Positions 502-61,390 are shown, numbered from the stretch's first letter. The stretch: 64,000 nucleotides of DNA from Clostridia bacterium (GCA_017397545.1 JAFQIK010000029.1:27264-91263), one strand, 5' to 3'. The notes: generated by a model from the letters alone, not told the origin. A program made the numbers and translations.

Positions 502-632
502 CGGGCGATTAAAATCGCCCCTACAACATTTGCAATTAATTTGTATATATTTTTGGGCAGGCACAAGACCTGCCCCTACAAACTCTTAATTAATTTTCTT
601 CACTGCGGGCGAGGATGGAACCTCGCCCCTAC
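502..632. repeat. three tandem REP hairpins downstream of glcK
   Basis: gcgggcgattaaaatcgcccctaca / gggcaggcacaagacctgcccctaca / gcgggcgaggatggaacctcgcccctaca. Confidence 0.7.
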
Positions 633-652
633 ACAATGCAAATTTAGGCAAC

Positions 653-1564
653 CTAAATTTGCATTGCTGCTCCTATTATTCCTGCATCGTTTTTAAGCTC
701 TGCAAGTACTATTTTAGGTATACTTTCTTTATTATATAACTCTACTTTTTCTGCAAGTTTATTTTCTAATCTTTCTAACAATATTTCTTTATAATGTGCA
801 AAACTTCCTCCTATAGATATTGCTTCTGGTTCTAAAATATTAATTAAATTAGCAATTCCTATGCTTAAGTCCTCTATATATGTATCTAATATTTCATTTA
901 ACTTTTCGTTTTTCTTATTGTCTATCATAAATTGTTTTATTAATTTTCCATCTATACTAGCTAAATTAAATTCTTTTTTTATTTTTTCTTTTAATCTCTT
1001 CATAGATGCGTATGCTTCAAAACATCCATTTCTTCCACAATTACATTTTTCTCCGCCTTTTTGTATTACCATATGTCCAACTTCAAACGCAGAATATCTT
1101 TTAGGTTTTAAAAGTTTTCCATTTAAAAATGCTGCTCCACCAACTCCTGTACCTATTATAAGAAAAAGTGAATCATCATATTCTTTTAAAGAACCATATG
1201 TTTTTTCGGCTATTGCTGCACACTTAGCATCGTTTTCTAAATATATTTGAATATTAAACTCTTTTTTTAATTCTTCTACTATTCTAAAATTTTCTATGCC
1301 TAGATTTTCTGCTTTTACTACTACGCCATTTGATACTGTTCCCGGAAAAGCAATTCCAATCGATTCTATTTTTTCTACTTGTTGTTGTTTTAAAATTTGA
1401 TTTAAAAGTTCTTTTATTGTATCTAATACTATATTAGACATGTCATTTTCGTGTATGTCATAATCTTTTTCTGTTTTTAATAAAAGATTTCCATTTGAAT
1501 CTATAATTCCTAATCCTATGTGACTTCCACCAACATCAATACCGATTTTCATATTAACCTCCAA
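653..1564 (-). CDS. glcK: ROK family sugar kinase (glucokinase-like)
   Basis: N-terminal MKIGIDVGGSHIGLGI ATPase motif, CNCGRNGCFE zinc motif, no HTH N-domain. Confidence 0.8.
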   Translation of the reverse strand: MEVNMKIGIDVGGSHIGLGIIDSNGNLLLKTEKDYDIHENDMSNIVLDTIKELLNQILKQQQVEKIESIGIAFPGTVSNGVVVKAENLGIENFRIVEELKKEFNIQIYLENDAKCAAIAEKTYGSLKEYDDSLFLIIGTGVGGAAFLNGKLLKPKRYSAFEVGHMVIQKGGEKCNCGRNGCFEAYASMKRLKEKIKKEFNLASIDGKLIKQFMIDNKKNEKLNEILDTYIEDLSIGIANLINILEPEAISIGGSFAHYKEILLERLENKLAEKVELYNKESIPKIVLAELKNDAGIIGAAMQI

Positions 1565-1619
1565 ATTTTTCTAAAAAAATAAATTGTAATTTATTTGAGA
1601 ATTATTTTTAGCGCAATTT

Positions 1620-1734
1620 GTAGGGGCGAACTTGTTCGCCCTCACTTCGAAGAACGGGCGATTAAAATCGCCCCTACATTTTTAGGTAATTCCTTCGATG
1701 CATTACGGGTCGCTGTGGGCAGCGACCCCTACAA
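1620..1734. repeat. REPIN plus an extra REP
   Basis: gtaggggcgaacttgttcgccc tcacttcgaagaa cgggcgattaaaatcgcccctaca ... gggtcgctgtgggcagcgacccctaca. Confidence 0.7.
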
Positions 1735-1768
1735 CGTTTGCAATTAATTCCATAATACAAATTACAAT

Positions 1769-3125
1769 TTATAAATATGCAGAGAATAACCATGTACCCA
1801 TATATACATTAATTAATGGAACTAATACTATTATTGTTACGAATATTAATAGCGCTCCAACAATTATATATACAATTTGAGGTAATACTTTCATTATTCT
1901 TTCTATTATATTATCAATATCAATTTGCATATAATCTAATAGTTTTTCCATCATTTCTGCTATATCTGTCTGCATTCCTATTTTTAACATTTCTGTTACC
2001 ATAGGGCTTGATAATCCAGATTGTTCAAATGGTTCTATCCAGCTTTGTCCTATTAATATATTATTAATAGAAGCTTCTACTAATGATAACATAACTAAGT
2101 TTGTTGCAATACTTTTACTTGTTTCTAATGCTTCTTGTATTCTCATACCATTTTTTACATTTAATAGTATTGCTTTTATTAATCTTGAAAAATCTATTGC
2201 ATAAATTAATGGTCCAAATATTGGAGCTCTGTATTTGAAATAATGATAATTATATTTACCGTGTGGTGTTCTTATATATACAATTATACCTACTACAGCT
2301 GCAATTATTGCAAATGTAGGAATATACCAAAATTCAATTAATTTATCTAATACTCCTTTAAACCATAAAGTAGCTGCTGGTAATTGATCCTGAGTTCCTA
2401 CTTGATCAAATACATTTTGTATCATAGGAATTGCAACCAATGTTCCTATAATTAGTAAAGCGAGTAATGCTACAAATTGTGCAATATTTGGAACTAATAT
2501 TTTCTTTAATCTTCTAGTCATTTCTGCACTTTCATCAAGATATTTTACAGCTTGTTCTAATGCTCTTGTTAAAGATCCGAGACAACTCTCCTACTTTTAT
2601 CATATTTATATAAATAGGTGGAAACACTCCTGAATAGTATTCCATTGTAGAATACATACTTTCTCCAGCTTCTACTCCTAATAATATATCTTCTAGAATT
2701 GCTCTAAGTGATGGATTTTCTGTTCCTTCAATAATTGTTGATAATGCATGTATATTATTAAAATTAGCTTTTTTTAGTAAATAAAAATTTTGCGTAAATA
2801 TAACAATATCTTTATTAGTTATTTTTACATCACCAAAAAGAACCTTTTTAGCTTTTTCCGCAAATCCCTTACTTTTAGATGACACACTTTTAGCAATTTC
2901 TTGCTCTCTAACTGTTTTTAATGCACTATCACTAGTTTCAATGTTTTTTCTTTGTTTTTTTACAGCTTTATTTGCCTTTGCACTCATTCTTATTTGAGTA
3001 ACTGATATTGGCATTAATCCATTATTTTTTAATTTTTTTAACAATACAAATTTATTTAATTCTTCTACTCTATTACTTACAACCTGTTTGTCTTTAGTTG
3101 CAGCCTTGTATATATATAATGGCAT
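1769..3125 (-). CDS. pilC: type IV pilus / T2SS platform protein PilC(GspF); needs +1 recoding at in-frame CGG (extra C, plus-strand G about 2579)
   Basis: Two adjacent ORFs (2535-3125 N-terminal part, 1769-2521 C-terminal part) are both GspF-like. Coding strand reads ...GTA GGA GAG TTG TCT C GGA TCT TTA ACA..; dropping the C gives VGELSGSLTRALEQAVKYLDESAEMTRRLKK, joining the halves. Confidence 0.8.
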
Positions 3126-60856: not shown

Positions 60857-60866
60857 TTGTTACATT

Positions 60867-60893
60867 GTAGGGGTCGCTGTCCTCGGCGACCCG
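60867..60893. repeat. REP element directly after the lon-like stop
   Basis: gtaggggtcgctgtcctcggcgaccc gctcttcgaag. Confidence 0.6.
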
Positions 60894-60942
60894 CTCTTCG
60901 AAGACATTGCTAAAAAATATTAATTTAGAAAGGAAATTATAT

Positions 60943-61200
60943 ATGAAAAAACACATCAAATTTACTTTATTATTAATTTTATTTTTAATATTATGTTCAA
61001 ATTACGTATTGGCAACCTCTATAGGAGATGTAAAAATTCCTGTAAACGAGGACTCAATATCTAAATATTCAAATATACATACATCAGTTGTTGAAGAAAC
61101 TTCTAATTTTGTAATATTATCTTCTTTTATAATTTTATTAATAATTATTATATTAGTTTTACTTATTGTATATATAATTAAGAATCATAAGAAAAAATAA
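60943..61200 (+). CDS. small secreted/membrane-anchored protein
   Basis: MKKHIKFTLLLILFLILCSNYVLA signal peptide plus a C-terminal TM and KNHKKK; RBS GAAAGGAAA. Confidence 0.45.
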   Translation: MKKHIKFTLLLILFLILCSNYVLATSIGDVKIPVNEDSISKYSNIHTSVVEETSNFVILSSFIILLIIIILVLLIVYIIKNHKKK

Positions 61201-61220
61201 ATAGTTCATAATTAAGGGCA

Positions 61221-61390
61221 GGCACAAGACCTGCCCCTACAAATTTTTGAAAATTAATATTTTAACCTATTTTTGTATTTAATTTTTGGAAAAACCTGTA
61301 GGGGGCACTGCCCATAGTGCCCCGCAATATAACCATTTGCATATTTTAAATTCACGGGTCGCCGAAGGCGGCGCCCCCTACATCACTCTA
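61221..61390. repeat. cluster of three REP elements
   Basis: gggcaggcacaagacctgcccctaca; ctgtagggggcactgcccatagtgccccg; cgggtcgccgaaggcggcgccccctaca. Confidence 0.65.

Follow-up and report, generated by a model that had tools for sequence, protein, structure and literature searches.

Introduction

Repetitive extragenic palindromes (REPs), their inverted doublets (REPINs) and the REP-associated tyrosine transposases (RAYTs) that accompany them have been studied almost only in Proteobacteria, where the case has been made that they are ancient, domesticated replicators with vertical inheritance. Here we describe a dense family of GTAG-headed REPs in a 64,000-nucleotide stretch of DNA from a Clostridia bacterium (GCA_017397545.1 JAFQIK010000029.1:27264-91263; this whole stretch is called the window, and positions are counted from its first letter). 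The hairpins very probably form a GTAG-tagged family, largely of REPINs, that is non-autonomous and depends on RAYT-type HUH/Y1 transposases encoded elsewhere in the genome.

GTAG REPs have been recorded in Proteobacteria, Cyanobacteria, Chloroflexi and the Planctomycetes-Verrucomicrobia-Chlamydiae (PVC) group, with Firmicutes unmentioned (Di Nocera et al., 2013; PMC3733652), and Firmicutes are likewise unmentioned by Nunvar (2010) and in the core REPIN/RAYT literature that we searched. Group 1 RAYTs do occur in Clostridia, with flanking 16-mers that are weakly repeated (Bertels et al., 2017; PMC5581495). A search of two supplementary files of Quentin (2018) turned up no Clostridia entries, and the REP sequence itself met chance primer matches only in the literature searched. 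Within that literature we found no earlier report of a GTAG-REP/REPIN family in Firmicutes, in agreement with a first-pass annotation, made from the sequence alone, that had called such systems unusual outside Proteobacteria.

The Clostridial repeats resemble described GTAG REPs and bacterial interspersed mosaic elements (E. coli REP, Stenotrophomonas SMAG, Pseudomonas REP; PMC3733652) in their 18-22-nt hairpin, whose 5' GTAG is unpaired, very high copy number, several subfamilies per genome, frequent inverted pairs and mostly extragenic location in co-directional or convergent gene spacers. Both also show occasional in-frame genic copies, in replication and repair genes there and in a topoisomerase gene here. 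The differences lie in the host, which here is a spore-forming Clostridium of 25-30 % G+C whose hairpins are GC islands within AT-rich spacers; in the unit, which is extended by a TGTAGAG repeat on the outside and by a GCTCTTCGAAG arm on the inside; and in the presence of one 24-mer common to different families of Clostridia. As in the REPIN-RAYT systems of Pseudomonas and Enterobacteria (PMC3116915; PMC5581495), the inverted doublet folds as a single long hairpin, REPs of the same kind bracket a small Y1 gene, and there is one RAYT lineage per REP/REPIN family with several families per genome. Unlike in those systems, many Clostridial RAYT alleles are broken, and the identical REP found in distant Clostridia speaks for some horizontal spread. 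Some intact Clostridial RAYTs contain an in-frame inverted REP pair.

The associated protein shares with E. coli TnpA-REP (4ER8) the HUH motif, the C-terminal catalytic Tyr helix, the fold (rmsd 2.0 Å), a length of ~150-165 aa, the lack of a TnpB partner and flanking REPs with GTAG; however, identity is only 26-28 %, the Clostridial protein has no counterpart of the C-terminal extension of E. coli RayT, and it scores under the NCBIfam equivalog cut-off. The HUH/Y1 fold is also that of IS200/IS605 TnpA proteins (IS608, ISDra2), a likeness under which subterminal hairpins would be recognised in single-stranded DNA and an orientation bias towards the lagging-strand template is expected. Whereas these elements have unique left and right ends, the Clostridial gene is bracketed by members of a large dispersed REP family, and its product matches the IS200 model only weakly (17-22 bits).

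Results

A family of GTAG-headed hairpins in the window

The window is AT-rich (27 % G+C overall, 24-33 % across 2-kb bins); its GC skew is negative, and the majority of its genes are on the minus strand. The pattern GGGCG-N3-12-CGCCC matches it 16 times, against 0 expected from 100 shuffles, and GTAG lies 5' or CTAC 3' of all 16 hairpins. A hairpin finder (GTAG or ATAG followed by GG...CC, at least 6 stem pairs, GC-rich stem) returned 28 well-formed REP copies between 503 and 61381; all 28 carry the GTAG head, a feature that is partly built in, as the finder required GTAG or ATAG. Together with three decayed copies this makes 31 REPs, or about 1 per 2 kb over 64 kb (Table 1). CTAC or GTAG is kept in two of the three decayed copies, and the one at 31171 has CTAA. 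These counts bear out the first-pass annotation, which had claimed more than 25 GC-rich hairpins with a GTAG head or CTAC foot, and so do the doublet centres and CTCTACA tails that it had also pointed out. Eight inverted doublets hold 16 of the 31 copies, and CTTCGAAG forms the centre of five of them; all five sites of this motif in the window abut a REP (10 strand-matches versus 2.7 expected). A REP precedes six of the eight CTCTACA sites, and TGTAGAG, the reverse complement, has zero occurrences on the + strand of the window.

The stems occur in several variants, all complementary (GGGCGAC/GTCGCCC, GGGTCGC/GCGACCC, GGGCAGG/CCTGCCC, GGGGCAC/GTGCCCC and GGGCGGA/TCCGCCC). Since they vary yet stay complementary, what is conserved is the hairpin, the GTAG head and the GGG/CCC foot. 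REP units measure 22-26 nt including GTAG, with perfect stems of 5-9 bp and, in imperfect copies, at least 6 pairs with one mismatch. DNA folds of REPs and doublets gave z scores of -3.4 to -13, the doublet in 6125-6225 forming a single long hairpin (-37.7 kcal/mol, z = -13). When 78 copies of the commonest subfamily were aligned, the unit was seen to extend past the hairpin (ttttag..atg.CTTCGAAGagC - hairpin - CTACAttttCTCTACAatttt). The full unit reads [TGTAGAG-N4]-TGTAG-GGG(stem)-loop-(stem)CCC-[GCTCTTCGAAG], and the palindromic centre GCTCTTCGAAGAGC is the meeting of the inner arms of two inverted units.

Subfamilies were distinguished by hairpin: A, GGGCGACTAGTAGTCGCCC; B, GGGCGATTTTAATCGCCC; C, GGGTCGAYG..CRTCGACCC; and D, GGGCAGG..CCTGCCC. 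Seven window copies of subfamily A have an identical 19-nt hairpin, and subfamily B has four copies in the window. The window and related loci together (516 kb) contain 219 REP copies with 89 distinct hairpins, 15 % of the copies lying inside open reading frames (ORFs) of at least 100 aa; this sample is biased, the related loci having been chosen by REP match. One hairpin dominates subfamily A, with 91 of the 219 copies in a sample seeded with that very sequence. Rfam at gathering threshold reported two tRNA-Gly genes only in the window and no family covering the hairpins. At 21206-21236 a GC-rich hairpin lacks GTAG and was rejected as a member, and a CRISPR reading of the repeats was dropped on account of their irregular spacing.

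RAYT genes bracketed by REPs in related Clostridia

As the first-pass annotation had noted, no RAYT is in view: neither Pfam (labels of called genes, and a run on the remaining ORFs) nor two RAYT hidden Markov models (HMMs) on all ORFs of at least 25 aa identified a Y1 transposase in the window. Its sole transposase is an IS1182-like DDE enzyme (41635-43083) with ends unrelated to the REPs. Neither phmmer with E. coli RayT nor a regular expression for HUH..Y matched any ORF in the window or in the first 79 related loci (L numbers), one distant sequence being too weak a probe. With RayT as query, a protein search returned enterobacterial RAYTs only, a sequence search of the Protein Data Bank (PDB) returned 4ER8 only, and tblastn against plasmids gave no Firmicutes match. 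A metagenome scan for the subfamily A 24-mer described below reached 22 short contigs only, with a RAYT on none, and no transposase lay beside REPs among inspected ORFs of the higher-G+C genomes (L013, L022, L034, L053, L063).

An HMM made with 115 representatives of diverse RAYT clusters matched the C-terminal 66 residues, ending YEHIIRNEKEYYKIKEYIKNNIVNW, of an ORF that the start of L071 truncates, and a subfamily A REPIN lies 23 nt past this C-terminus. As a query the 66-aa fragment retrieved truncated products only, suggesting that all RAYTs were broken. This was overturned by a profile of reconstructed RAYTs, which found ~8000 related Y1 proteins in metagenomes, many of them intact (149-151 aa, Pfam PF01797).

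Inverted REPs bracket the RAYT gene in L104, L115, L120, L121 and L126. In L104, TGTAGGGGCGACTAGTAGTCGCCC ends 35 nt before the start codon and GGGCGACTACTAGTCGCCCCTACA begins 17 nt past the stop codon. An intact 150-aa RAYT-like Y1 transposase, P0376, is encoded on JAZSCD010000044.1 (L120) of the metagenome-assembled genome (MAG) JAZSCD01 and is bracketed by the inverted subfamily A REPs gtgtagagaaaaTGTAGGGGCGACTAGTAGTCGTCC and GGACGACTACTAGTCGCCCCTACAttttctctaca (also given as TGTAGGGGCGACTAGTAGTCGTCC and GGACGACTACTAGTCGCCCCTACA); the flanking layout of P0402 (L121) is the same. P0372 (L126, 149 aa; NCBI MBE5819829.1, 'transposase [Clostridiales bacterium]') has the subfamily B hairpin GGGCGATTTTAATCGCCC on both sides, and P0311 (L123) has subfamily C hairpins at its 3' end and inside the gene. 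In related Clostridia, REP subfamilies A, B and C each accompany a separate RAYT lineage. REPs change together with the RAYT lineage that they flank, as is seen in L112, where a RAYT remnant lies between two variant REPs, GGGCGATTAGTAATCGCCC. No neighbour gene listed beside the inspected RAYT genes had a TnpB-type (OrfB_IS605) Pfam label.

The proposal that these REPs are mobilised by RAYTs is supported as far as related genomes are concerned, in which RAYTs are flanked by subfamilies A, B and C. The first-pass annotation had also allowed that the repeats might turn out to be unrelated terminators in a genome lacking a RAYT, an outcome that did not occur, given the intact REP-bracketed RAYT in JAZSCD01.

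Further RAYT lineages of 162-170 aa, intact in many clusters, have an inverted REP pair in frame (VGANCVRP ... GRTQFAPT) around the HUH-encoding segment, so that the gene is in effect a REPIN made partly of transposase coding sequence. The internal hairpin is near-identical to the window REP at 34968-34990, one loop base apart. In two lineages, with A-type and C-type REPs, dprA lies directly downstream of the RAYT (L118 851-2022, L123 1778-3187), which hints at an old, vertically kept locus. For vertical inheritance of the RAYT, this adjacency points one way and the occurrence of the 24-mer in both Lachnospiraceae and Oscillospiraceae the other.

P0376 resembles E. coli RayT

The best model for P0376 is NCBIfam REP_Tyr_transpos (NF047646; E 2e-15, 56.8 bits), which scores E 2e-15 to 1e-17 (57-64 bits) across the RAYT relatives tested, under its equivalog cut-off of 80 bits throughout. 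On the same relatives the IS200 model gives 17-22 bits against a cut-off of 55 (P0376 17 bits, E 4e-3) and Pfam Y1_Tnp gives 23-30 bits against a cut-off of 23, with P0376 just above it. P0376 is 28 % identical to E. coli RayT; the HUH and WQ..F.EH.IRN..(D/E)Y...YI motifs align, and H80-x-H82 and Y136 are invariant in 67 aligned sequences including Proteobacterial RAYTs. For the AlphaFold model (pLDDT 84.9) the top PDB match in Foldseek was 4er8_A (E 1.3e-7, TM 0.66/0.60, rmsd 2.0 Å, 125 columns), and the next matches were IS608 and ISDra2 TnpA. The 4ER8 entry is E. coli TnpA-REP (RayT; Ton-Hoang et al., 2012; Messing et al., 2012) bound to a REP hairpin. On the basis of these sequence and model comparisons P0376 is a RAYT-like HUH/Y1 transposase of predicted activity.

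REPs turn over between close relatives

The exact 24-mer GGGCGACTACTAGTCGCCCCTACA occurs in 67 stretches of GTDB species representatives. Most come from one MAG, JAZSCD01 ('Clostridia bacterium SGB_3351', GCA_045602745.1), which is the closest genome found; where its contigs overlap the window they match it at 90-96 % identity, indicating the same or a sister species. The 24-mer is also present in many other low-G+C gut MAGs, in Faecousia (loci of 48 and 55 % G+C), in an Oscillospiraceae MAG (37 %) and in the closed chromosome of a Lachnospiraceae isolate, Chakrabartyella piscis (39 %), and these genomes of other composition have extra GTAG hairpins of their own types. Three 'uncultured Clostridium sp.' MAG species (L031, L042, L066) share ~200 identical nt around a subfamily A REP, which suggests a shared mobile segment.

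The comparison with close relatives proposed in the first-pass annotation was made against strain L005 and sister MAG JAZSCD01 and revealed both presence/absence and exchange of REPs. In L005 (97-99 % identical) the 135-bp block 58317-58451 with its REP doublet is missing. The topoisomerase gene of the sister MAG has one REP, with another stem and loop, exactly where the window has two; its asnS/topoisomerase spacer has a singlet in place of the window doublet; and the doublet before aspS is swapped for an AT-rich repeat, while REP 38042 is missing and REP 35653 is kept. REP copies are thus gained, lost and exchanged between close relatives. Short-read contigs of the window organism end at REPs (L006).

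The repeat found at the aspS site belongs to a second, AT-rich family of 43 nt, TTTTGTACTATTCAC(T/A)TT(C/A)ACTATTCATTATTCACTATTCAC, built of TATTCAC-like heptamers. In the sister MAG it fills the site of window REPIN 34968-35015, and in the window one copy (5948-5990) adjoins the REP at 5991.

Position and orientation of REP copies

The intergenic placement claimed by the first-pass annotation holds for most copies, which lie past stop codons between co-directional genes or in the convergent spacers asnS/topoisomerase and lonC/rpoC; one divergent spacer, tRNA-Gly/tsaE, also has REPs. It does not hold for two copies that are in frame within the type IA topoisomerase gene (31702-31772). In the sister MAG (L060), the leader peptides of three paralogous type IV pilin-like genes (MKK..VGATSSRP..KGITLIALI) are read in frame through a subfamily A REP, which precedes the prepilin cleavage motif.

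Among 64 singlets between co-directional genes, 58 have GTAG on the coding, G-rich strand. Y1 enzymes of the IS608 type are known to act on the lagging-strand template. The orientation bias fits such action, and RNA-level selection fits it equally well.

Table 1. REP copies and other features, with positions in the window or in the related locus named
Feature	Locus	Position	Strand	Remarks
REP, subfamily B (GGGCGATTTTAATCGCCC + CTACA on + strand)	window	503-524	-	first of three tandem REPs (503, 555, 607) 3' of gene 653-1552 (-); same hairpin flanks RAYT lineage P0372
REP, subfamily D (GGGCAGG..CCTGCCC)	window	555-579	-
REP (GGGCGAGGTTCCATCCTCGCCC)	window	607-632	-
REP	window	1620-1641	+	left arm of REPIN doublet 1620-1677, CTTCGAAG centre
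REP, subfamily B	window	1656-1677	-	right arm of doublet 1620-1677
REP, subfamily C (GGGTCGCTGCCCACAGCGACCC)	window	1707-1732	-
REP, C-like	window	5991-6016	-	AT-rich 43-nt repeat just before
REP, subfamily A (GGGCGACTAGTAGTCGCCC)	window	6132-6154	+	left arm of REPIN 6132-6218
REP, subfamily A	window	6196-6218	-	right arm of REPIN 6132-6218, then TTTTCTCTACA
REP, subfamily C	window	13774-13799	+	left arm of doublet 13774-13846
REP	window	13821-13846	-	right arm of doublet 13774-13846
REP, subfamily B	window	22236-22257	-	singlet, CTCTACA tail
REP, subfamily A	window	31096-31118	+	left arm, decayed partner; convergent spacer asnS/topoisomerase
REP, decayed (GAGCGAACACAGTTCGCCCCTAA)	window	31171-31193	-	right arm of doublet with 31096
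REP, subfamily C	window	31702-31727	-	in frame in type IA topoisomerase ORF 31230-33188 (-), VGVDAHIDP
REP	window	31747-31772	-	second in-frame REP of topoisomerase ORF, VGVAPLGDP; missing from sister MAG
REP (GGGCGAACTGCGTTCGCCC)	window	34968-34990	+	left arm of tight doublet between aspS leader terminator and aspS ribosome-binding site
REP	window	34993-35015	-	right arm of tight doublet 34968-35015
REP, subfamily A	window	35653-35675	-	singlet; kept in sister MAG
REP, decayed (GGTCGGGACGAAACCCGTTCCCTACA)	window	38001-38026	-
REP, subfamily A	window	38042-38064	-	singlet; missing from this site in sister MAG
REP	window	56370-56395	+	left arm of doublet 56370-56427, TTCGAAG centre
REP, subfamily B	window	56406-56427	-	right arm of doublet 56370-56427
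REP, subfamily A	window	56498-56520	-	tail CTACG
REP, D-like (GGGCAGGGGTTGCTCTGCCC)	window	56583-56606	-
REP, decayed	window	58349-58373	+	left arm of doublet with 58381
REP, subfamily A	window	58381-58403	-	right arm, within 135-bp block 58317-58451
REP, C-like	window	60867-60892	+	11 nt past lonC stop codon, then GCTCTTCGAAG
REP, subfamily D	window	61216-61240	-
REP (GGGGCACTGCCCATAGTGCCCC)	window	61298-61323	+	left arm of doublet 61298-61381
REP	window	61356-61381	-	right arm of doublet 61298-61381, CTCTACA tail
Inverted doublets (starts of arms)	window	1620/1656, 6132/6196, 13774/13821, 31096/31171, 34968/34993, 56370/56406, 58349/58381, 61298/61356
RAYT, broken	L104	3773-4225		single in-frame TAA
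RAYT, broken	L115	2557-3010		frameshift and nonsense codon; L118 likewise
RAYT, broken	L112	2930-3266		N-terminal half deleted
RAYT, broken	L123	1778-2303		REP insertion and frameshift
RAYT with internal REP pair	L129	2097-2594		REPs 2240-2264, 2400-2424; confirmed in DNA
RAYT clusters with internal REP pair				P0330, P0348, P0354, P0363, P0380, P0383, P0386, P0389
Pilin-like genes with leader REP	L060	3596-5188, 5424-5876, 5955-6962
AT-rich 43-nt repeat	window	5948-5990, 43156-43198		also L005 1-45, L019, L072, L074
Frameshift-split SpoIIE, PBP and TsaB genes	window	35715-37969; 50068-52300; 57223-57892
Direct-repeat pairs	window	12569-12692 and 14319-14442; 44933-45036 and 46699-46801

Other features of the window

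The gene content, with spoIIE, spoVA, spoIIID, SipL and type IV pilus genes, fits a spore-forming Clostridium host, and window proteins have exact matches on ruminant-gut metagenome scaffolds (ENA XIEF21-1 series). Several conserved genes are split: SpoIIE into three overlapping ORFs by frameshifts, with one break at an A7 run, and the penicillin-binding protein (PBP) and TsaB genes into two each. Random assembly error is not the cause, as the same split products occur on at least 10 independent metagenome contigs; ComM is likewise split in relative L115.

The IS1182-like transposase gene (Pfam DDE_Tnp_1_6, DUF772) has copies of an GAATCCAAATGCACAGCATTTGGATTC hairpin at its bounds and tRNA-Gly (41357-41430) alongside, the whole spanning 41357-43200. 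A diverged tandem duplication of ~1.1 kb (18423-19494 versus 20098-21165, 78-84 % identity) comprises two ORF6N/KilA-N-type genes and their spacers. There are also two direct-repeat pairs of 100-124 nt, 91-95 % identical with ~1.75 kb between partners, neither of which contains a REP; one of them flanks the first spoVA genes (spoVAC-spoVAD). Upstream of aspS a T-box-like motif (AGGGTGGCACCGCGGAG) is followed by a terminator hairpin (35040-35110, minus strand), and Rfam at gathering threshold reported no T-box there.

Discussion

The hairpin family of the window, its inverted doublets and the pairing of its subfamilies with RAYT lineages in related genomes together argue strongly for a REP/REPIN family served by RAYTs encoded outside the window. 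By analogy with E. coli TnpA-REP and with IS608 and ISDra2, a RAYT would bind the REP hairpin folded in single-stranded DNA, with the 5' GTAG serving as a guide or recognition element; its tyrosine would cut and rejoin, probably on the lagging-strand template, and the doublet would be the unit copied.

A number of observations weigh against this reading. The enzymatic activity of the P0376-type RAYT family is predicted by analogy, and P0376 falls under the curated equivalog cut-off of NF047646 (56.8 versus 80 bits). The strain and sister-MAG comparisons yielded no clean insertion junction or empty/filled site pair, hence no target site. Replication and transcription are separable in only 3 singlets, and GTAG follows the gene in 3/3. 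No RAYT is tied by accession number to the window's own MAG, and the 64 kb and flanks covered of that genome gave none. Finally, RAYT alleles are inactivated in four ways (nonsense in L104, frameshift and nonsense in L115, and the lesions of L112 and L123; Table 1), and with so many alleles inactivated in relatives the REPs of a given genome may be fossils.

The last point leads to the alternative that survives best, namely that the REPs of the window genome are a fossil population whose RAYT has been lost or inactivated and which now only decays. The absence of a RAYT from the window, the at least four independent kinds of RAYT inactivation in relatives, the three decayed REPs and the many other frameshifted genes of the window organism would all be expected under it. 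We nevertheless consider it unlikely: a decaying population sits poorly with seven subfamily A copies retaining identical 19-nt hairpins in 64 kb, with REP differences between strains at about 97-98 % identity, or with hairpins swapped at orthologous sites relative to the 90-96 % identical MAG JAZSCD01. That MAG has an intact RAYT, and intact alleles from other samples, P0429 (versus L104) and P0350 (versus L115), occur in lineages with broken ones.

More improbable still is that the hairpins are host-selected terminators or 3'-end stabilisers of mRNA, alike through function and not through mobility. Such a role would account for the position of most copies, a few to tens of nt past the stop codons of co-directional or convergent genes, and for the 58:6 bias of orientation relative to transcription, and two copies are terminator-like in a consensus scan (hairpin followed by CTACATTTT). 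However, both of these matches lie antisense to the flanking genes, and in the usual, sense orientation the hairpin is followed by GCUCUUCGAAG, with no U tract. Nor would it account for identical 24-mers at dozens of loci in genomes of 26-55 % G+C, for copies in frame within coding sequences and in the divergent promoter spacer 56370-56606, for RAYT genes bracketed by REP copies, or for copies swapped at fixed sites between close relatives. A host-RNA role is compatible with these data only as a secondary, exapted one. In that form, protection of mRNA 3' ends or termination is a possible function of the REPs, a candidate role because most singlets lie just past stop codons with the GTAG strand in sense.

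That the repeats are miniature inverted-repeat transposable elements of a DDE insertion sequence, such as the IS1182-like element, or IS200/IS605 ends with TnpB, is hardly credible: a DDE transposase is present in the window and IS200-type TnpA is abundant in Clostridia (Quentin, 2018), but the IS1182-like element ends in other hairpins (GAATCCAAATGCACAGCATTTGGATTC), the REPs showed neither terminal inverted repeats like any insertion sequence end nor target duplications, the Y1 protein associated with them fits the RAYT model far better than that of IS200, and no gene beside the inspected RAYTs has a TnpB-type label.

With about one REP per 2 kb and three or more REP/RAYT pairs, the dense system of these gut Clostridia, which are AT-rich and form spores, widens the known range of REP/RAYT systems to Firmicutes. 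Ideas on REPIN population dynamics, on how RAYT and hairpin co-evolve, and on horizontal versus vertical transmission can be examined there in an independent lineage. There are practical consequences also, as REPs break short-read assemblies of such MAGs at contig ends, add REP-encoded peptides to proteins and can be taken for terminators by annotation pipelines. More tentatively, and with considerable doubt, gut Clostridia might harbour a large, undescribed REPIN-RAYT radiation that departs from the Proteobacterial pattern, in which horizontal movement places the same REP across families of 26-55 % G+C, RAYTs flip between intact and broken within populations, and REPs routinely serve as in-frame coding modules (pilin leaders, a topoisomerase linker and the HUH brackets of RAYTs). 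If this were true, the internal REP pair could make part of the RAYT gene itself a substrate, allowing self-regulation or self-excision.

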